From IMG/VR virus record IMGVR_UViG_3300045988_149348: a DNA stretch of 42,988 nucleotides; one strand, given 5' to 3'. The notes below the pieces were generated by a model. That model was not told the origin of the DNA, searched no databases, and saw only the letters and a list, made by a program, of their open reading frames with translations. The position numbers and the translations under genes are program-made. The DNA comes from a virus (taxonomy: Duplodnaviria > Heunggongvirae > Uroviricota > Caudoviricetes). Shown here piece by piece: positions 16,799-42,890 of the stretch; the first letter of the stretch is position 1; every line of letters begins with the position of its first letter.

Positions 16799-18655
16799 CT
16801 ATATGGTTACGCCTTTACTTATAACTCTACGACGTCTTCTACGTATACCTGACGAGTTCTGCACATACACATTACCTCGCATTTCCTGTTCGGCAAGCCA
16901 GTTAAAATTAGGGTTCAGAATTTCCATCGCGGCAGTTGCATAGTTACGGCAATCAAGAGGCTCGTTACGCTCGTAGACTTTCACCCACTTTTCTTTTGTC
17001 TGCCCATTTTTATATTCAAATATTTTTTTCTCTGATAATAATCCTTTAAAGTATTCGGTATCATATCCTCTGTCAGAATCTAATGGGAAATGCATATAAC
17101 CAGGACCAGGATCATGTAGTTTAATTCTTGCCATGATGGTCCCTTTACCATCATCAACCCCCAAATTAAACAACATAGCACCCACACGGTTATTATTACT
17201 TGGCTTTCCTATAAATGGTAAACCTACCCCACCACGCCCCCTGATAGAGTATATTCGCCTTGATTCTCTCGGCTTAGTAAAGCGATATACCTCTGTCGTA
17301 AAATGCCCACCAGAGTCAATACAAACGGAAGAAATCTGTAATTTTCGACCGTCACGGAATGACCAGCTACGGAGTAAGTATTCATCAAGTTGTTTCCAGA
17401 CAACATCTTGTGCGGGATCACCTGGGAATATTTTATATTCTATCCCCCATGACTCCTTACCTTTTCCCCAACCGACCAATTCACAAACTAAATACGTGTC
17501 CTGTACGTCAACACCAGCACTTAACAATAAAACATCATCTGGTAAAAACTCTTCAAACCTTATTCTGCGTTGCAACAAGTATTCAGGATCGATATCGTCT
17601 TTAGCATCCTCTTTCCATGGCTCACCCAGCTTAAGGTTAATAAACTCCATTAATCCATTTTTATCGCGGTTTCTGGTTGCTTCCGTAAATTCTTCAACCA
17701 GCTCTGACAATGCAACCCACGGGGAGTAAAGACTGTTAATATGAAAACCAACAATACCTTTAACTCCAGTATGTTCAGCTATCCATACCCCCTTCGCCAA
17801 CCAATCAACGTCTGGTTTACCAGATCCGCGCATAATCCCGCCGCACTCACAGCACTCATATCTGGCCGTTTCCGGTAACGCCTCACCTGAATCGCTCTTA
17901 TCCCATCTGACTTGCGACCATTTCATCACCTGCATGGTGCCACAACATGGGCAAGGAACATGGTAGTAACGCTGATCGGAGAGCTTAAACCACTTGTGGA
18001 TTTTGCTCGTTTCCTCCAAAACAGGAGTAGAAACAAAAACTTTCTTACGATTATGAAAGTTGGTAGTACGCTGAATACCTAGTTTTAGTGGGTCGCCCTC
18101 CTGCGTCACACCGTAACGATCAATCTCATCAGCTAACAGTATTCGAATTGGCCTGGATGCAAGACCTGCTGGGGAATTAGCACCAACAAGTGCTATATAT
18201 CCACCAGCGTAATGCTTCATACGTATAGTCGTGCTGGACTTTTTGGCTGCACCGCGCCCCTCTTTCCCTTCATGCAGCTTGTGTTTCAAACCAGGGGAAT
18301 ATTTGAACGTCGGATCAATACGCTCCTTTGAAAAAGCCTCAGCCGCCTCTACCGTTGGATAAATCATCAACTGAGGAGATGGCTCCTGATCTGCAAAGTA
18401 ACCCATAACATTTAGCTGTAATTCGGATTTACCAATTTGTGAGCTACATTGCATCACTACTGTTTCTGTATCAGCGTCACCAATAACATCCATTGGTTCA
18501 CGCAAATATGGCACTCGGCTTGTACGCCACGGCCCTGGCTCTGGAGACGTTCCCGGCGCTACATGACGATACTTATCAGCCCATTCGGAAACAGTTAGCC
18601 GTGATTTAGGGCGAAGCGCACGGAAAAAAGCGGTGCTCCATACTGTTTCGCCCAT
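16799..18655 (-). CDS. terminase large subunit, GpA family
   Basis: 618 aa; N-terminal TVSEWADKYRHVA...VMQCSSQIGKSEL pattern as recalled for lambda gpA; cysteine cluster CPCCG...CCECGG. Confidence 0.8.
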   Translation of the reverse strand: MGETVWSTAFFRALRPKSRLTVSEWADKYRHVAPGTSPEPGPWRTSRVPYLREPMDVIGDADTETVVMQCSSQIGKSELQLNVMGYFADQEPSPQLMIYPTVEAAEAFSKERIDPTFKYSPGLKHKLHEGKEGRGAAKKSSTTIRMKHYAGGYIALVGANSPAGLASRPIRILLADEIDRYGVTQEGDPLKLGIQRTTNFHNRKKVFVSTPVLEETSKIHKWFKLSDQRYYHVPCPCCGTMQVMKWSQVRWDKSDSGEALPETARYECCECGGIMRGSGKPDVDWLAKGVWIAEHTGVKGIVGFHINSLYSPWVALSELVEEFTEATRNRDKNGLMEFINLKLGEPWKEDAKDDIDPEYLLQRRIRFEEFLPDDVLLLSAGVDVQDTYLVCELVGWGKGKESWGIEYKIFPGDPAQDVVWKQLDEYLLRSWSFRDGRKLQISSVCIDSGGHFTTEVYRFTKPRESRRIYSIRGRGGVGLPFIGKPSNNNRVGAMLFNLGVDDGKGTIMARIKLHDPGPGYMHFPLDSDRGYDTEYFKGLLSEKKIFEYKNGQTKEKWVKVYERNEPLDCRNYATAAMEILNPNFNWLAEQEMRGNVYVQNSSGIRRRRRRVISKGVTI

Positions 18656-18660
18656 GAGGT

Positions 18661-19221
18661 TTATTCTTCCTGCTTAATAAATCGGGATTCCTGGAGCGCC
18701 TGAAGCGCAAAATTAATCTCGTCTTCAATAATGCGTTCGATCTCCCTGGCTGTTTTGCCTTCACAACGGGGAGCTGCTCTTGGAGCAATACTAAATAAGC
18801 GGCTACGCAATTCATTAGCTGCCAGAAATGCATCATCCCTGACCGCATCTTTAGCGATGAGAGAGCCTTCCTTTTCTTCAAATTCAAGGCGTTTCAGCTT
18901 TGCCTGATAAATTTTTTCTGCGGTCTTAGCCTTGTTGAATTGCACCGCAACACCGGAAGTACCACCAGCTAATCCGGCATCATCAGCGGGTAACTCTGGT
19001 TGTTCCGAAGATATCCCATGCCCTCTTTTTCCATTTTCAGCAGATACCTCACGACCAACCTGTCGGCTCGCTTCATAAGCCGCACTGGCTTTATCAAAAT
19101 CCAGCTTGCCGCTTTTCAGCACTGGAATGCGACCGGAACGACAGAGCTTCGTAACCATTGCCGGAGAAATACCTTTCCGGCGGGCAAACTCTGACTTACT
19201 GACGATGGCCATTACTTGCAA
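18661..19221 (-). CDS. terminase small subunit, Nu1-like
   Basis: 186 aa with N-terminal helix-turn-helix (VSKSEFARRKGISPAMVTKLCRSGRIPV) immediately upstream of the large subunit. Confidence 0.6.
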   Translation of the reverse strand: MQVMAIVSKSEFARRKGISPAMVTKLCRSGRIPVLKSGKLDFDKASAAYEASRQVGREVSAENGKRGHGISSEQPELPADDAGLAGGTSGVAVQFNKAKTAEKIYQAKLKRLEFEEKEGSLIAKDAVRDDAFLAANELRSRLFSIAPRAAPRCEGKTAREIERIIEDEINFALQALQESRFIKQEE

Positions 19222-19802
19222 CCATTAGCAAGATACTGAACAAATCCCTCATGCGTTTCATGCGCGTCGTGGTACTGACGATAAACATCCAGCAACAATG
19301 CAATTTCCATATCCGTCGCGGGAATACGTTCTTTATCAATAGCCAGGTACTTAATTTGAACAACAGGGGAAGAATTATCGTCTTCTTCCTGCGGCTGTTC
19401 ATCGCTTAACATTTCGTCAAGCTCTGCATCATTAAACCCAAGCAGATCAATATCAAAATCATCATCCATTAACTCTTTGACTTCTTCGGCCAGAAGCTGC
19501 ATATCCCAGCCAGCATTTAAGGCCAGCTTGTTATCTGCAATCCTGTACGCCTTCTTCTGTTTTTCAGAAAGGTTACTCAACCGAATCGCCGGAACTTTAT
19601 CCATTTCCAAAATTTCGGCTGCTGCAAGCCGCCCATGCCCCGCAATCAGTTCATTCTTTTCATCGATCAGCACAGGATTAGTGAAACCGAACTCACGGAT
19701 ACTGTTCACCAACTGCTCAACTTGCTCATCTGAATGAGTCCGTGAATTTTTGGCATATCTGAGCAGCTTACCGACTGGTAAATATTCGATTTTTAGAGCC
19801 AT
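19212..19802 (-). CDS. ParB/Srx N-terminal domain protein (paralog 1)
   Basis: 196 aa; NSRTHSDEQVEQLVNSIREFGFTNPVLID...IAGHGRLAAA is a ParB N-domain-like motif; paralog of 22469..23092. Confidence 0.6.
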   Translation of the reverse strand: MALKIEYLPVGKLLRYAKNSRTHSDEQVEQLVNSIREFGFTNPVLIDEKNELIAGHGRLAAAEILEMDKVPAIRLSNLSEKQKKAYRIADNKLALNAGWDMQLLAEEVKELMDDDFDIDLLGFNDAELDEMLSDEQPQEEDDNSSPVVQIKYLAIDKERIPATDMEIALLLDVYRQYHDAHETHEGFVQYLANGCK

Positions 19803-20359
19803 TTTTTAACCGCCATAACACAACAGGTTAAAGAAAACTGTTTAACTTATTGATACTAAAAGAGAAAAATGACGATCTTTTTACTCATAAAGAATCACAC
19901 AAACCAGCATAATCATCTGATTTTATTAAGTTTTTATAAGTAAAAAGGATCTTGCGATGGTTTTTTGGTTAAAAGATTGGATGTATTTGCATGATTTATA
20001 ACGATTTTTATCAGAACAACATCACATTGGTTAAAGATCTGCGCGTATCTTGATGATCTAAAAGAAAATTTTCTACTTTCTTTTTACCAGCACAAGCACA
20101 GCAAAAAATCACGTTTTCCCAATATTTTTCAATGAGATGAGTAAATTTCTTTTACCGCAACTTTTAACCTAACTTTTTTCACGTTTAGCTAGCCGAACAT
20201 CGGGGTTCGAATGACCCGCATCCAACGCTTTTGGCCAGAAGGACCCAATTCTGCCGGACGATGAAACGATGCTCGTGCACCCCCACAGACAGCCTGCGAG
20301 CGACGCTACAGAACACAGTGAATACACTCTGCATAACAACACCATCAACCACACGATGA

Positions 20360-21079
20360 TTAACGAGAGAAGGTCTTAGAAAGAATGTCATCAATAGCCT
20401 TTGTGACTTCATCAGCAAACGCATCCTCACCAGCACGCAGCGCCACGCCATGCCAATCAAGACGCTGCGAATAGTTAGGTTGCTGGATAAACGTAAGGAT
20501 CAACGTAGGACGCCGCCCAACGCGCTGCCAGACGCCTGGTTGAAGCGGGTTACTTGTACCAGGTCGAACAACAAAAAACTCCGTAGGCTTGCCCTGACGG
20601 CGATTTTGATGCGCATCTCGCTGAACTCTTAGGCCAGATAAGACCTGCTGTAATTGCCCCCGCGAAATATTCCCGTATTTGTCCAGCTTTGCGCCGGGAC
20701 CAGGAGCAAGCTGCCAGCCGTTAGGCAAATATCCACCAGCCCTTAGCGCCCCTTCTGAGCGTTTGTACTGTCGTTGGCCACCTTCGATTTGCGGAGTCAA
20801 CGTTACAGGGGCTGGCGTTCCTCCCCATTCACGAGCATACACAATGGCTGTAGGATCACTCTTCTTTGCGGCCAAAACGTAAGTAGAGTTCTGAATCCAC
20901 GGCGTGGGCCTGTCAAATACCCGATTAATTTCATTCTTAATCGCAGCCTGAGAAGCCTTTGCCGTTCTGGTTGCCGCAAGCGCCATTGCGAACGGCAATT
21001 CGCGTTCTTCAAGGCGCTGGAGTTGTCGTTGAATATCCTGAGAAGAAAAATCCATCTTTATCTCAATTCTGTCAGCCAC
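20360..21079 (-). CDS. hypothetical protein
   Basis: 239-aa ORF in the GC-rich block between the ParB-like genes; no recognised motif. Confidence 0.4.
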   Translation of the reverse strand: MADRIEIKMDFSSQDIQRQLQRLEERELPFAMALAATRTAKASQAAIKNEINRVFDRPTPWIQNSTYVLAAKKSDPTAIVYAREWGGTPAPVTLTPQIEGGQRQYKRSEGALRAGGYLPNGWQLAPGPGAKLDKYGNISRGQLQQVLSGLRVQRDAHQNRRQGKPTEFFVVRPGTSNPLQPGVWQRVGRRPTLILTFIQQPNYSQRLDWHGVALRAGEDAFADEVTKAIDDILSKTFSR

Positions 21080-21095
21080 CAGCGCCTCCTACACA

Positions 21096-22475
21096 CTACT
21101 TAATCAACGGCCGGAAAGCCGCCAGCACATCATCAGATCGTCCGATTGTTGAACCACCAGGCAACGGCAACTCAAACTCAAAACGAACAGCTTTCTCCAG
21201 ACTCGCCCAACTAAGGGAATCATCGTTAATGACGTGCAAATACCAGCTCTTACAGTTGAATATTGACCGCTTAATCCTGAAACCATGTACACGACACAAC
21301 TGCTTCACTTCCTCATCAGAGTGAAACTTCTGGTAAAACCAGTGCCCCTTCCGGTACAACGCGGTAAAACCGTTATGATCAATAAAATAAAGCCGGCTTT
21401 TGGAACTCGCCGCTTGTGTCTGCTTCAGGACTGTTTCCAGCTCTCCACGGCTACGGCCAGAAAAGAATATTGACCCACCAGCTTTACACAGCCCTTTCAG
21501 AACCGTCAGAACGGACCATTCAGCCTCGACACTATCGACCGAGTTCAAAACGCTATCGCAAATCACGTAGTCGTAACGCCCTCGCGTTTTTAAGTCGTCC
21601 ACCAGCGTATCAATCATCCGGTTTGTTGCGGTCCTATCCAGAGTGTTTCCAGCGCCCTTACGGCGGAAAAGCTCAAGATCATGCAGGTTATATCCCTTTG
21701 CCCTGAGCATTCGCGCGTAGTCTCCCTGACCCGAACCAAAATCAATTCCTCTTGGCGTCTTGGCAATGATCGGGAGGATCAACGACTCATACAGGTTTGA
21801 TTTCAGGCTGCCACCATTACGCAACCGCATAAGCTGCGCATACGTCTGGATGTATGTTGTTTTCTCCAGATGAGAATACTCAAATACACCATAAGTTTTA
21901 TTCAGATAACTTTGGTATTTTTCCTTCTCAACATCAGGGATCACAAACACCGTTAGCGGTGTGCGCGTCATCTTCGCTGCTAATGCATACTGAGCACAGT
22001 GAATAACCTCGCCAGACTGCGTAGCAACACAACCACCCCACGGACCATACTTGATAACCAGTTCCGCTATGTTCTTTCGAACATATGCCATTTTCGCGCG
22101 CATATTGCCTGAGATCTGGCTTGCCGATACCTGAACAAAACCATGCTTATCTTCCAGACCTGACACCCTGCAACGCTCATCTCCGCTGTCAAAATCCGTT
22201 CCGTTATGCAGTTGGTTAAACCGTACTTCGTCGTATACCGTCGTTTCACAGGGCAACACATACACCGCAGCACGCGTTATTCCCAACTTACGTAGCGCCT
22301 TCGTCCTTTGGTGTCCCGCCACCAGCAAATCGCCGCGCACTATCAATGGCTTCACAAGCCCCAGCTCCCTGACGCTTTCCGCCAGCCTCGCAAGATCATC
22401 CTCACCGATAAAACGCGGGTTATATTCCGCGCCGCGTAGGTGCGTTATGTCGTAATTGAGATGAAGCATCAGCAC
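21096..22475 (-). CDS. ParB N-domain / class I SAM-dependent methyltransferase fusion protein
   Basis: 459 aa; N-terminal ParB-like motif (PLIVRGDLLVAGHQR); C-terminal Rossmann methyltransferase motifs (GIDFGSGQGDY, LHDLE, YDYVICDSVL); no DPPY-type motif seen. Confidence 0.55.
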   Translation of the reverse strand: MLMLHLNYDITHLRGAEYNPRFIGEDDLARLAESVRELGLVKPLIVRGDLLVAGHQRTKALRKLGITRAAVYVLPCETTVYDEVRFNQLHNGTDFDSGDERCRVSGLEDKHGFVQVSASQISGNMRAKMAYVRKNIAELVIKYGPWGGCVATQSGEVIHCAQYALAAKMTRTPLTVFVIPDVEKEKYQSYLNKTYGVFEYSHLEKTTYIQTYAQLMRLRNGGSLKSNLYESLILPIIAKTPRGIDFGSGQGDYARMLRAKGYNLHDLELFRRKGAGNTLDRTATNRMIDTLVDDLKTRGRYDYVICDSVLNSVDSVEAEWSVLTVLKGLCKAGGSIFFSGRSRGELETVLKQTQAASSKSRLYFIDHNGFTALYRKGHWFYQKFHSDEEVKQLCRVHGFRIKRSIFNCKSWYLHVINDDSLSWASLEKAVRFEFELPLPGGSTIGRSDDVLAAFRPLIK

Positions 22476-23092
22476 ACCTCCCCAGCCAGCAATGCGGATA
22501 CAAATCCGATATAGCTGCCATTATCATCAACATAACGAGACACCGCGCAGTCAAAACGATCCGCTTCCTCATCCGTTGCCGGGATTTTATGACCTCCAAA
22601 TGACAGGTACTGAACTTTTACGCCTGATTTGGCCTCATCCTTCTCAAATGGGATATCCATACCCTCTGTGTCATCGTAGACCGCCGCACTCAATAAGTTA
22701 TCCAGTTCGCGCTGAGTAAAACCAATTGAGTCCAGAGCAAAATCATCGGCCGCAAGATCTGCAAGCTCCGCGCTTAACAACTCTTCATCCCAACCAGCAT
22801 TCAGCGGAATACGGTTGTCGGCCAGACGATATGCCTTCTTCTGATTCTCCGTTAGCCCTTCCAGAACAATGCAGGGAACGTCATCCATCCCCAACTGAGT
22901 GGCCGCAGCAATTCGACCATGACCAGCAATTACAACGTTGTTCTCGTCTATCAGGATCGGATTAGTCCATCCGTACTCCTGTATGCTGGCAACAATCTGA
23001 TCTACCTGCTCCACGGAGTGTGTGCGAGCGTTCTTTTCATAACCAATCAACACAGAAAGTGGTAAAGAAACCACATTAAGATGTTTTGTCAT
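22469..23092 (-). CDS. ParB/Srx N-terminal domain protein (paralog 2)
   Basis: 207 aa; NARTHSVEQVDQIVASIQEYGWTNPILID...IAGHGRIAAA; shares the C-terminal KIPATD motif with paralog 1. Confidence 0.6.
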   Translation of the reverse strand: MTKHLNVVSLPLSVLIGYEKNARTHSVEQVDQIVASIQEYGWTNPILIDENNVVIAGHGRIAAATQLGMDDVPCIVLEGLTENQKKAYRLADNRIPLNAGWDEELLSAELADLAADDFALDSIGFTQRELDNLLSAAVYDDTEGMDIPFEKDEAKSGVKVQYLSFGGHKIPATDEEADRFDCAVSRYVDDNGSYIGFVSALLAGEVC

Positions 23093-23214: not shown

Positions 23215-23290
23215 TGGTGGCCCCTACCGGATTTGAACCGATGACCGTGCGATTATGAGTCGCCTGCTCTAACCACTGAGCTAAGGGGCC
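23215..23290 (-). tRNA. tRNA with CAU anticodon (Met or Ile2/lysidine type)
   Basis: 76-nt cloverleaf folded by hand: 7-bp acceptor stem, GCTC/GAGC D stem, anticodon loop CUCAUAA, T loop TTCAAAT, 3' CCA encoded. The 5' 42 nt match E. coli ileX-type tRNA as recalled. Confidence 0.8.
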
Positions 23291-32005: not shown

Positions 32006-32662
32006 ATGAAAAGCAACGACGAGAACATCAAGAAAGAAATAGGTCTGCGCATTCAGACTCTACGGAAACAATCCGGCATGACTGCCGGAGATCTCCAGCA
32101 AGTCACTGGAATAGGCTTAAGCACCTTGCAGAACTATGAGGCCGGATTAAGACAACCATCTATACCTGCCATCAAGAAAATCGCGCACGCCCTGAAAGCA
32201 TCAGCGCCTTATATCGCGTGCTTAACAGATAACCCGTTCCCACCCCAGAATACTAACGCTCCTGTTATTCCTGGGCTTGTAGCTATAAAAAATGACATAG
32301 CATCGCACGCCGGAGAAAAGCCAGTGCTGGCGATAGAACAGGAGATTCTACGAAGCAAGAACATCAACCCATCGTCTCTGTCAGTTCTCCAGAGCAACGA
32401 TGAGTTAATGTCACCAACAATATCCCCTGGCTCCCAAGTCCTGATTAATACAGACGATACAGAGATTCATGAGGGGATCTATGCCCTTGAAGACAGAAAT
32501 GGCCTGGTTGTTTTGAGGCACTGTAGAGTCATACCGGGTGACAATGCTGTTATGCTGTCAACCGAAAGGGATGCTGAAATGAACACTAAGCATCTGAATA
32601 ACGAGGAATTTAAGCGTTATAAAGTTCTTGGCCGCGTAGTTAGTGTTGTCAACTGGTTATGA
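32006..32662 (+). CDS. CI-like repressor (HTH_XRE N-domain + LexA/S24-like C-domain)
   Basis: 218 aa; N-terminal helix-turn-helix (LQQVTGIGLSTLQNYEAG); C-terminal ELMSPTISPGSQVLIN aligns by eye with the S24 GDSMxPxIxxGDxVLVD motif. Confidence 0.7.
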   Translation: MKSNDENIKKEIGLRIQTLRKQSGMTAGDLQQVTGIGLSTLQNYEAGLRQPSIPAIKKIAHALKASAPYIACLTDNPFPPQNTNAPVIPGLVAIKNDIASHAGEKPVLAIEQEILRSKNINPSSLSVLQSNDELMSPTISPGSQVLINTDDTEIHEGIYALEDRNGLVVLRHCRVIPGDNAVMLSTERDAEMNTKHLNNEEFKRYKVLGRVVSVVNWL

Positions 32663-33264: not shown

Positions 33265-33933
33265 ATGGAGTCTCGACAAATGACTATCTCTGTAGGTATT
33301 TTCAACGGAAAAGGCGGCGTAACCAAATCAACAATTGCCCGTGCTTTAGCAGTTGCTTATGCAAAGGCTGGCTGGAATGTATGCCTGATCGATATGGATG
33401 TGCTTAACGGAACGGTAACGCGTTGGGTACAACGCAGAATGGCCAACAATATCGAACCAGCAATCGCGGCGCAGCCGTGCGGCACACCATCACAAGTCCA
33501 GAAAATCATCGAATCAGAAGTATACGACCTGGTTATCGTTGATGGCGGTGCCTACGCATCTGAATCAGTACCGAAGCTATCTGAATTTCTGGATATGGTT
33601 ATTTTGCCAACCCGATTCTCTACCGATGACCTGGAAACCACCGTTAACACTGCTCACGGCATCGTTAAAAAGGGTGTGCCAATCAAGAAAATTTGCATGG
33701 TGTTTTCCGGCGCGGCTGAAAATGAAGCTGACTATATTGAAGCCCAAGAGTACCTGGCTAATACGCCATACTTTGTTGTCGATAAGTACATTCCCCACAA
33801 GCCAGCTCTGAGCAAAGCTCAGGATAAGGGCTTAAGCCTCATTGAATGCTCATACGTTGCGCCACGCAAAAAGGCAGACGACGTTATTCAGGGGATTATC
33901 AACCAGCTTGAGGCTCTGACTACTGCCGCGTAA
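33265..33933 (+). CDS. ParA-family partition ATPase (small, type Ib-like)
   Basis: 222 aa; deviant Walker A GKGGVTKST near the N-terminus; followed by a small ribbon-helix-helix-like gene; AT-rich repeats upstream. Confidence 0.7.
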   Translation: MESRQMTISVGIFNGKGGVTKSTIARALAVAYAKAGWNVCLIDMDVLNGTVTRWVQRRMANNIEPAIAAQPCGTPSQVQKIIESEVYDLVIVDGGAYASESVPKLSEFLDMVILPTRFSTDDLETTVNTAHGIVKKGVPIKKICMVFSGAAENEADYIEAQEYLANTPYFVVDKYIPHKPALSKAQDKGLSLIECSYVAPRKKADDVIQGIINQLEALTTAA

Positions 33934-38137: not shown

Positions 38138-38184
38138 TCTTTCTGGCGCTTACATTACACCACCATAAAACGATCCGTAAAGGA

Positions 38185-38457
38185 TCATTTGATCCCTTGT
38201 TCCAATTCTGACGACACTTTAACCTTTTCCCATACAAGGGTTTGCAGCCTTAACAGAATCGCATCTTTATCAAGGTGTGAAAGATCCTTAACCATATCGT
38301 CAAACGACAGAACGCGAATGGCCATCTCAATGACCCTCGGCGGCTCCCCCTTCTCATATCGCTTATATGTAGCCAACGATATCCCAAATTCTTCGGCGGC
38401 TCGCTCCTGCGTCCAGTTCATCCCACGACGCCATAATTTCAATTCATAACCCGTCAT
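38185..38457 (-). CDS. Cro/C1-type helix-turn-helix DNA-binding protein
   Basis: 90 aa from ATG 38457 (GAGGAGG upstream); WTQERAAEEFGISLATYKRYE helix-turn-helix. Confidence 0.55.
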   Translation of the reverse strand: MTGYELKLWRRGMNWTQERAAEEFGISLATYKRYEKGEPPRVIEMAIRVLSFDDMVKDLSHLDKDAILLRLQTLVWEKVKVSSELEQGIK

Positions 38458-41174: not shown

Positions 41175-42023
41175 TTAATGTTGGAGTGATTTCCAGGTCT
41201 TTCTTAACCTGTTATAACGCTGCTCAACGAGGGATCGTAAATATGCAAGGTCAGCACCTGGATACATGCCATCAGCAAATTCCTGACTAACCTCTCTAGT
41301 GATTTGATGACGAAGTTCGGCCTCTCCCTTTTCCTGAACAAGACGCGCAGCTCTCTCCGCTGCTTTCTGTTTTGCCTTTATCTCTCTGGCCGTCTTCCTC
41401 TGACGCCATACATTCTCCATCTGCTCCTGAATAACAATACGCTTATAATCAGCCTCCGTTATCGCTTTTTTAAGCCGTTCGCTATTCTTCGCATTGAAGT
41501 AATTAAGTTTCTGGCTAACCGCACGTCTCCATGCTTGTTCAGTAATACCAACGGTTTCCAGCAGTTGATCACGAATCTCTATTTTCGCTGGCCAATACTG
41601 TTTATTCACCCGATCCCAGCGACGTTCATAATCAATAAAACCTAACGCTTTCAGTTGCGACAACGCCCTTGTACAGCGCGTTATAGACTTGTTCCCAGCT
41701 TCGGATACGGTAGACAGGCCGCAAAAATCAGCCAACGCCTCAGCACTAGCCAGAACCCGCTTAGAAATGATGTTTACATGGTGCAAAATCGCAGCGATCA
41801 CAGCATTAATCGCCCGACGACGATGCTCGTTTATCCGGCGCTTCCGCTCTGACGGTTGATTAACGTAGAACGCAACCTCACACGTAAGATCACGCCCATT
41901 AATGCGCTGTAAAGCATCAGATAACACCAGCGGCAGCTTGTGCGTATGGTGCTTTGGAGGCTGGAACTCCGGCGACAAATTACAAACGTAAGCTGAACGT
42001 AGAGACGGCATTGGTCTATCCAT
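41175..42023 (-). CDS. repA: plasmid replication initiator RepA, IncFII RepA1-like
   Basis: 283 aa from ATG 42023; CGLSTVSEAGNKSITRCTRALSQLKALGFIDYERRWD matches the RepA1 core motif as recalled. The ORF track's longer form (to 42185) starts at a TTG. Confidence 0.75.
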   Translation of the reverse strand: MDRPMPSLRSAYVCNLSPEFQPPKHHTHKLPLVLSDALQRINGRDLTCEVAFYVNQPSERKRRINEHRRRAINAVIAAILHHVNIISKRVLASAEALADFCGLSTVSEAGNKSITRCTRALSQLKALGFIDYERRWDRVNKQYWPAKIEIRDQLLETVGITEQAWRRAVSQKLNYFNAKNSERLKKAITEADYKRIVIQEQMENVWRQRKTAREIKAKQKAAERAARLVQEKGEAELRHQITREVSQEFADGMYPGADLAYLRSLVEQRYNRLRKTWKSLQH

Positions 42024-42067
42024 ATGTTCGCTCTTGCGTCCACGGAAAACCAACGTATAATGGGAGT

Positions 42068-42148
42068 TGTCGATGCGCCCATGGATATTGTTGTTGGTTT
42101 TCCGTGGATGTCGCAAGAAGCCCGCAGATTTATCTGCGGGCTTTTTGT
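42068..42148 (+). ncRNA. candidate CopA-like antisense RNA (countertranscript to the repA leader)
   Basis: Plus-strand promoter TTGCGT-16-TATAAT (-10 at 42056..42061); stem-loop CCAUGGA/UCCGUGG; terminator GCCCGCAGA-TTTA-TCTGCGGGC plus TTTTT (42120..42146); lies 45-125 nt upstream of repA on the opposite strand. Confidence 0.55.
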
Positions 42149-42190
42149 TTCCATATCTGGTCACTTTCCAACCAGACACCCACAATCATA

Positions 42191-42335: not shown

Positions 42336-42890
42336 TCAATGATTCCCAGCCGGAAACCTGCGGTAAAGCGTGGATAAGGTAACATCGAAGATAATCGCTA
42401 TCCGCTTACGTGAAACACCATTCGCAATAAGCCTTCCGATCTGTTCCCATTGCTCTGGTGCCAATTTTGAGCGGCGTCCTCCTATCCTGCCGTTAGCCCT
42501 TGCCACCGCCAATCCTGCACGCGTTCTTTCAATCATATTTTCCCGCTCCATCTCTGCGACTGCACTCAGCATCGTGTAGGCAAAGCGGCCAATTGAAGTG
42601 CTAATTTTTATCCCTTCCGTAATCGAAATAAACTCAATGTTGTTTGATAAAAAATAGTTAAGTAAATCAACAAGATGAATCAGAGAACGCCCCATTCGGT
42701 CCAGCTTCCAGACAATAACCGTATCGCCCGGCCGTAACACCTTCAGTAGCTTATCAAGTCCTGGTCGTTTTGATTTAGCACCGGATATTTTATCTTCAAA
42801 AATCCGGTCACATCCTGAACTCCTGAGCGCTTCCAGTTGTAATTCCAAATTCTGGTCAAAAGTTGACACCCTCGCATAACCATATTGCAT
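42336..42890 (-). CDS. serine recombinase, Gin/Hin/Cin-family DNA invertase
   Basis: 184 aa; YARVSTFDQNLELQ catalytic-serine motif, VWKLDRMGRS, C-terminal GRIGGRR...LSTLYRRFPA helix-turn-helix; closely parallels Gin as recalled; gix-like site about 65 bp upstream. Confidence 0.8.
   Translation of the reverse strand: MQYGYARVSTFDQNLELQLEALRSSGCDRIFEDKISGAKSKRPGLDKLLKVLRPGDTVIVWKLDRMGRSLIHLVDLLNYFLSNNIEFISITEGIKISTSIGRFAYTMLSAVAEMERENMIERTRAGLAVARANGRIGGRRSKLAPEQWEQIGRLIANGVSRKRIAIIFDVTLSTLYRRFPAGNH

Follow-up and report, generated by a model that had tools for sequence, protein, structure and literature searches.

As judged from sequence comparisons, the 557-nt non-coding gap at positions 19803-20359 of the 42,988-nt stretch of viral DNA that we analysed here (the window) is very probably, with a probability of about 0.88, a lambda-type cosQ-cosN-cosB site of a temperate myovirus of ~48 kb that is maintained as a plasmid. 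The cos ends of this lineage are already implicit in GenBank records; our literature search for a description of cos in this lineage, and a search by phage name for a paper on the Yersinia phages vB_YpM, found none.

The window encodes an IncFII-type RepA (41175-42185) and a ParA (33265-33933) with its own small gene downstream, and a serine resolvase and a CI-like repressor (HTH_3 plus a weak S24 match) are present in the regions 42336-42890 and 32006-32662. As these genes stand beside a complete set of myovirus morphogenesis and late genes, we regard the window as a phage-plasmid. Among 5426 complete E. coli genomes, 72 (about 1.3%) carry DNA of this element with 96-99.5% identity, and 71 of these 72 copies reside on plasmids of 39-52 kb, mostly 47-52 kb, among them pATCC25922_4 of the reference strain ATCC 25922. 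The Yersinia phages vB_YpM_39, 41 and 44 possess a TerL protein that is 100% identical to that of the window, and their DNA matches the gap at 96.5-98% identity over the matching part (up to 517 nt). Since these three near-identical phages were isolated as plaque formers on Yersinia pestis EV76, we conclude that the element makes infectious virions. Elsewhere in the window, a small-ORF region carries three GATC sites within 23 nt (38172-38194), followed by GGTTAAAG at 38217-38224; this site may be regulatory or origin-related.

An earlier note on this DNA had singled out the gap as the only long non-coding interval of the late region, with an AT-rich left half and a GC-rich right half of local dyad symmetry, and had read it as a candidate cos or packaging-recognition region. 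The gap is indeed real and non-coding. Flanked by the minus-strand genes at 19212-19802 and 20360-21079, it contains no credible ORF, RefSeq leaves it unannotated in 71 of the 72 E. coli copies, and it is the longest intergenic gap between positions 1400 and 25500, where the runners-up measure 386 and 200 nt. Its left half is AT-rich as described, with a GC content of 0.293 over 19803-20160 versus 0.444 for the whole window, and the lowest-GC 358-nt stretch of the entire window begins at 19822. For the right half, in which relatives differ by indels, the claimed direction was correct but the size of the effect is modest (GC 0.51-0.54), and the dyad symmetry does not rise above chance: this part contains two short palindromes, centred on GCTAGC (20183-20198) and on TGGCCA (20228-20241), and its predicted RNA fold gave z = -1.04 against 200 shuffles, 32 of which folded equally well. 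Searches of the gap revealed no Rfam matches and trivial tandem repeats only, and a scan of 19600-20600 for sigma-70 promoters and intrinsic terminators returned no sites.

On the minus strand, the gene for a 239-aa protein (20360-21079) is followed by the gap, the ParB_N gene, terS, terL and then the genes for portal, protease and capsid. The features on which our reading relies are listed below in this order, and phage coordinates (bp) are counted from the predicted left end at window position 20216.

20247-20359, no strand assigned: hypervariable spacer of 113 nt from the stop codon of the upstream gene to cosQ, unconserved and with many indels among relatives
20240-20246, minus strand: cosQ-like heptamer GGGTCCT, at -30 to -24 from the top-strand nick, with a 23-nt spacer
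20205-20216, minus strand: predicted cosN, the 12-nt cohesive-end sequence GGTCATTCGAAC, a 12-mer unique in the window and located at the record ends of relatives
20170-20204, minus strand: right flank of cosN, CCCGA-N7-CTAG (CTAG at 20189-20192), with an I2-like spacer and an A6 tract, phage bp 13-47
19212-19802, minus strand: ParB_N-domain (ParB/Srx-like) gene, 196 aa, between cosB and terS; PF02195, phrog_620
18661-19212, minus strand: TerS with N-terminal helix-turn-helix; phrog_57 (E = 7e-42), weak Cox/AbiEi-type helix-turn-helix matches over residues 5-39
16799-18655, minus strand: TerL of the GpA family; PF05876 (E = 7e-76), PF20454 (E = 1e-84)

The TerL protein is 28% identical to lambda gpA over 92% of its length (E = 1e-50), and its gene starts 1.55 kb downstream of cosN. 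Terminases of the GpA family are cos enzymes. The TerS start codon, an ATG at 19212, agrees with the RefSeq gene model; a BLASTP comparison of TerS with lambda Nu1 gave E = 0.41, no match to Pfam Phage_Nu1 was obtained, and a PDB sequence search with TerS returned nothing. The packaging system thus appears to work like that of lambda, yet its TerS is by sequence not a member of the Nu1 family. Of the neighbours named in the earlier note, the ParB_N protein, the small terminase and the GpA-family TerL were confirmed, while the small subunit is to be viewed as a functional analogue of Nu1 and not as its sequence homologue. The 196-aa ParB-like protein gave weak PDB matches to the N-terminal domains of ParB, Noc and Spo0J, and no helix-turn-helix or DNA-binding domain beyond ParB_N was detected in it. 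The stop codon of its gene overlaps the start of terS as TAATG; the gene occurs in the Vibrio relatives and is missing from two other relatives (L034, L035) and from the prophage relatives. Two more ParB_N proteins are encoded just upstream of cos (21096-22475 and 22469-23092), one of them fused to a methyltransferase (PF13489), and a tRNA-Met (CAT) gene is located on the minus strand at 23215-23290, between this ParB-like/methyltransferase block and the lysis genes; the tRNA is annotated in vB_YpM_41 as well.

The position of cosN is suggested above all by the ends of related database records (a slash marks a nick or record boundary in the following). Two of the Yersinia records, OR545054 and OR545053, begin with GGTCATTCGAAC/CCCGATG at window position 20216 and end with GGATGCG, while the third, OR545055, begins 12 nt further on with CCCGATG and ends with GGATGCG GGTCATTCGAAC. 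Hence, these three records, which are flagged as circular, use two start registers whose offset of exactly 12 nt is the cosN 12-mer. Five Vibrio phages (63-65% TerL identity) have linear records that terminate at the homologous site. Those of PVP-XSN and R20L start with GGTGCTCGCGAC/CCCGCG and end with GAGCG, and in X29, for which the authors report defined ends, and in R19R, the 12-mer is split between the two record ends after 11 and 10 nt, respectively. The record of XM1 (PP580404.1) carries GGTGCTCGCGAC at both ends, plus one extra A at its finish, as expected for a 5' overhang that was filled in and A-tailed during library preparation. This XM1 genome is consequently over-long by 13 nt in the database, an artefact of the record.

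Two further kinds of evidence come from sequencing libraries. In an IMG/VR contig with 58% TerL identity (L035), an adapter tail, GCTCTTCCGATCT, is fused to GGTAGGCGCGGC/CCCGA at the same aligned position; this contig, 3300045988_118791, still begins with 13 nt of Illumina adapter (bp 1-13), likewise a database artefact. In the Acinetobacter phage HFM1 (46% TerL identity), a 5' cohesive end determined with PhageTerm is annotated in the context GCG/GGACCGAGGAC/CCC. A scan of IMG/VR for the adapter tail joined to either end of this phage's own 12-mer found nothing, and when the opposite end of the L035 contig was sought, only chance coding matches came up. Four matches in metagenome contigs were set aside as unrelated; in L060 the 12-mer follows the adapter without cosQ or flank similarity.

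From these boundaries we infer nicks at 20217/20216 on the minus strand and at 20205/20204 on the plus strand, which would make 20216 bp 1 of the phage. The record boundaries of the relatives imply an overhang of 10 nt (R19R), 11 nt (X29 and HFM1) or 12 nt (XM1 and vB_YpM_44), which leaves an uncertainty of up to 2 nt in its length. All these ends combined would locate the cut site to a precision of 2 nt and make a 5' overhang the most likely one, a polarity read from library-preparation chemistry. The two-fold symmetry of cosN, as read from the sequence, is weak (GGGT...ACCC). Unique, non-permuted ends at this site are indicated by the GenBank records of the near-identical Yersinia phages and of the Vibrio relatives; in place of the redundant, permuted DNA of a headful or pac mechanism, the ends of the relatives fall at one nucleotide position. 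For the cos reading of the earlier note, the ends of related records, the adapter junction, the PhageTerm annotation and the cosQ offset of lambda (see below) all argue in favour, and the outcome that it had named as speaking against itself, termini mapping elsewhere or permuted, is the opposite of what the database records of the relatives point to. Its placement of the site in the gap stands as far as the predicted cut at 20205-20216 lies inside the gap, at the boundary of the two halves and not in a dyad-symmetric element.

The second pillar of our reading is the heptamer GGGTCCT, a single copy of which exists in the window. The right end of lambda (J02459) carries this heptamer at an identical offset, as do Vibrio, IMG/VR and prophage relatives. 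When aligned at the nick, the lambda right end reads ACGGGTCCTTTCCGGTGATCCGACAGGTTACG/GGGCGGCGACCT and the window TTGGGTCCTTCTGGCCAAAAGCGTTGGATGCG/GGTCATTCGAAC, and GGGTCCT occupies positions -30 to -24 in both. We take the cosQ of lambda to be bp 48473-48479 (Wieczorek & Feiss 2001), which is exactly the GGGTCCT heptamer. Lambda-like cos sites are composed of cosQ, cosN and cosB and have 12-base 5' extensions, and their 7-bp cosQ is highly conserved and needed for the termination of packaging (PMC4669245, PMC4856287, PMC9026076). By analogy, we infer a cosQ role for the heptamer at 20240-20246. Conservation among the relatives starts abruptly at cosQ and runs on through cosN, CCCCG and CTAG, and every relative with a TerL identity of 50% or more keeps the CCCCG motif with CTAG 7-8 nt further on. 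The spacer that follows in the window has its counterpart in the I2 spacer of lambda at ~bp 18-50 (PMC4856287).

A scan of species-representative genomes for the signature GGGTCCT-N20-GCGGGT-N8-CCCCG returned about 65 loci (L067-L131), versus ~0.02 expected by our own estimate. In 32 of them, the gene for a GpA-family TerL that is 24-56% identical to that of the window follows on the same strand after 600-810 nt; the others have too little downstream sequence or stem from high-GC genomes, and the matches in high-GC actinobacteria look like chance because no TerL is present downstream. As a mark of prophage cos sites ahead of GpA-family terminases, the signature was found in Pseudomonas, Paenibacillus, Brevibacillus, Neobacillus, Domibacillus, Sporomusa, Sutterella, Roseomonas and Devosia, and signature loci show a clade-specific repeat motif that starts about 45-50 nt from the nick. 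An exact scan of the species-representative genomes for cosQ together with the 12-mer of the window gave 0 matches. The lambda cosQ heptamer and its 23-nt spacing hence recur next to GpA terminases in prophages of both Gram-negative and Gram-positive hosts, which provides a simple sequence rule for the computational location of cos sites. In the Enterobacter phage Arya (NC_031048.1; 32% TerL identity), GGGTCCT lies at -24 to -18 from the right end of the record, so that the deposited start may be ~6 nt off the true nick.

The AT-rich part of the gap contains a repeat array. The 402 nt between cosN and the start codon of the ParB-like gene hold nine copies of GGTWAAAAR, some in either orientation and none with more than one mismatch, whereas 1.5 +/- 1.3 are expected from 2000 local dinucleotide shuffles, none of which reached nine (0/2000). 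Likewise, five of the eight window copies of GGTTAAAR are located inside the array. Its parts are as follows.

20161-20169, minus strand: proximal repeat S1, GGTTAAAAG, phage bp 48-56
20148-20156, minus strand: proximal repeat S2, GGTAAAAGA, phage bp 61-69
19803-20147, minus strand: distal AT-rich repeat array, putative extended cosB or accessory binding sites
20080-20088, minus strand: S3, a GGTWAAAAR match
20029-20037, plus strand: S4, a GGTWAAAAR match
19967-19975, plus strand: S5, a GGTWAAAAR match
19939-19947, plus strand: S6, a GGTWAAAAR match
19877-19885, minus strand: S7, a GGTWAAAAR match
19826-19834, plus strand: S8, a GGTWAAAAR match
19803-19811, minus strand: S9, a GGTWAAAAR match
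19989-20078, no strand assigned: segment absent from Yersinia phage vB_YpM_44 (OR545055), a clean 90-nt deletion that removes S4 and two GATC sites

In lambda and N15, R3 is found at ~bp 48-65, and the spacing between it and cosN is critical (PMC9026076). By analogy with these phages, S1 and S2 (20148-20169, minus strand, bp 48-69) can be assigned as the R3-equivalent part of cosB. Both are kept in relatives with 88% TerL identity, and GTTAAC-type repeats are found at the same place in a relative with 77% TerL identity (L028) and in the Vibrio phages. Conservation islands in the alignment of the relatives coincide with the repeats, and the motif itself differs by clade: it is GGT(T/A)AAAAG in the E. 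coli/Salmonella elements, GTTAAC in L028, GTTAACA(C/G)TT in the Vibrio phages (five copies between cosN and the ParB-like gene), GGTGGTAACTA in L035, the palindrome GTTCATGAAC in L034 and CTTTCG in Paenibacillus prophages. As vB_YpM_44 forms plaques without the segment 19989-20078, this segment is probably dispensable, and so, at least partly, is the distal array. Its length, about three times that of the lambda cosB, together with the 90 nt missing in a viable phage, suggests that part of the array may serve a second purpose. The IHF consensus has a single match in the gap (19843-19855), which is unconserved and far from cosN. A Dam-regulated site like the pac site of P1 was considered for the four GATC sites of the gap, three of which abut repeats, and was set aside; GATC is not enriched window-wide and the gap sites are only partly conserved.

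Collectively, these data lend themselves to a packaging model that is drawn by analogy with lambda. TerS would bind the proximal repeats via its N-terminal helix-turn-helix and thereby position TerL on cosN. TerL would introduce nicks staggered by 12 nt around GGTCATTCGAAC (20216-20205), and 5'-protruding cohesive ends would ensue. After nicking, the complex would stay on the repeat-bearing end, and packaging would proceed leftward in window coordinates, taking up the ParB-like gene, terS, terL and the head genes, until it is terminated at the next cos by a reaction involving cosQ. That the repeats are bound by TerS, as in lambda, is the assumption on which this model draws. The repeat motif varies together with the presumed recognition-helix region of TerS, as GGTWAAAAG is found with ISPAMVTKL, GTTAAC with LSRPAVTKL, and GTTAACA or GGTAACT with SHVWV.KL. 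Because the motif tracks the presumed recognition helix in this manner, and clades without a nearby ParB gene keep their repeats, TerS appears to be the most economical candidate for the repeat-binding protein.

One may ask, nevertheless, if cosQ and cosN function as described while the array is bound by the adjacent ParB-like protein, with TerS using the proximal sites or none; the array would then be a centromere-like loading or nucleation site that aids packaging, protects the end or regulates the operon. The ParB_N gene borders directly on the array and its translation is coupled to that of terS, two further ParB_N proteins are encoded just upstream of cos, and longer arrays (~400 nt in the window, and 140 nt holding five repeats in the Vibrio phages, versus ~100 nt in L035 and typical prophages) occur only in clades with a ParB-like gene. 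However, the same motif also occupies the R3-equivalent position beside cosN, clades without any ParB gene near cos still possess clade-specific repeats, the ParB_N domain is highly conserved between the E. coli element and the Vibrio phages though their motifs differ, and the 196-aa protein has no detected helix-turn-helix or DNA-binding domain besides ParB_N. We therefore deem binding of the array by the ParB-like protein unlikely, and favor TerS as the protein that would read the repeats. The length of the repeat array and the ParB-like gene that separates cosB from terS are in any event somewhat unusual for a cos site. In a more speculative proposal, for which we see only a slim chance, array and ParB/Srx-fold gene, along with the two further ParB_N proteins encoded upstream of cos, would form an accessory packaging-recognition layer in this clade, in which a ParB-like protein loads on the G(G/A)TWAAAAR sites, several of them directly next to GATC. 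If this were true, the ParB-like protein would mark, condense or gate the cos end for the terminase, the layer would distinguish the lytic packaging substrate from the resident plasmid copy, and a new class of cofactor for cos packaging in phage-plasmids would have been found.

The AT-rich half could alternatively be a replication origin of the plasmid or of lytic growth, or a partition site, with the repeats as iterons or parS and cos as an incidental neighbor. Such a role would fit the most AT-rich stretch of the window with its approximately nine short repeats, its four GATC sites, three of them next to repeats, and an adjacent gene of the ParB family. The genes that an origin or partition site would be expected to have at its side are far away, however: RepA (41175-42185) and ParA (33265-33933) are encoded at a distance of 13-21 kb, and neither a Rep nor a ParA gene adjoins the gap. 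The sole Rep gene, of the IncFII RepA family, lies 21 kb away from the would-be iterons, and the neighbor of the would-be parS has the N-terminal domain of ParB only and sits in the terminase operon. Moreover, relatives that are not plasmids, namely lytic or temperate Vibrio phages and integrated prophages, share repeats beside cosN, and a 90-nt deletion inside the array is tolerated. An origin or partition function of this region is consequently very improbable to us. The idea that the record starts reflect mere annotation convention while packaging is headful or begins at another site can draw on the circular label of the Yersinia records, for which no methods paper was found, and on the habit of many submitters to rotate genomes to the terminase region, but it is hardly credible, as convention would not put starts 414 nt ahead of the first gene, in two registers exactly 12 nt apart, and at the same nucleotide position in records of several independent submitters, leaves the 12-nt terminal repeat with its extra A and the adapter junction unexplained, and would not match the cosQ offset of lambda next to a terminase from a family of cos enzymes.

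With cos placed in the gap, the genome ends and the packaging direction would be fixed for a phage-plasmid lineage present in ~1.3% of the complete E. coli genomes. This should enable a correct orientation of these genomes, predictions of the DNA that is packaged or mobilised via cos, and the design of cosmid-like vectors; studies of packaging specificity may take modest leads from the expanded array and the ParB-like insertion.

One of the systems to which the predicted cos site can be compared is Acinetobacter phage HFM1 (OR246918.1), whose record annotates a cohesive end. It shares with the window a GpA-family TerL (46%), the context GCG/GG......AC/CCC, and TerS and TerL genes immediately downstream; unlike the window, it has an annotated overhang of 11 nt and no ParB-like gene, and its nearest counterpart to cosQ is GAGTCTC at -33 to -27, with no exact GGGTCCT at -30 to -24.

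The Vibrio phages X29, phi 2, Rostov 7, vB_VpaM_XM1, PVP-XSN, R19R and R20L, members of the proposed 'Weiviridae' (PMC11432961), are closer, and our search of the literature on them found no description of a cos site. With TerL proteins of 63-65% identity, they display the same order of cos, ParB-like gene, TerS and TerL, the same cosQ, the same nick context GCG/GGT...C/CCCG and the same CTAG. They differ from the window in their 12-mer, GGTGCTCGCGAC, in their repeat, GTTAACA(C/G)TT, and in a distance from cosN to the first gene of ~140 nt versus 402 nt.

A further point of reference is lambda cos, along with those of N15, 21 and phi80. The likeness consists in a GpA-family TerL and a cos site just upstream of the terminase genes, in a CG before the left nick, in a stagger of 12 nt with 5' overhangs, both of them predicted for the window, in an AT-rich spacer that is followed by repeats from ~bp 48 onward as in R3, and in packaging toward the terminase and head genes. 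The cohesive ends themselves are unrelated (GGGCGGCGACCT in lambda versus GGTCATTCGAAC in the window), and three R sites over 120 nt in lambda stand against approximately nine repeats over 400 nt here. In contrast to lambda, the window has no conserved IHF consensus between the first repeats, and its TerS has no detectable similarity to Nu1. It is set apart from lambda as well by a ParB_N gene between cosB and terS, by a myovirus virion, and by a prophage that is an IncFII-RepA plasmid.
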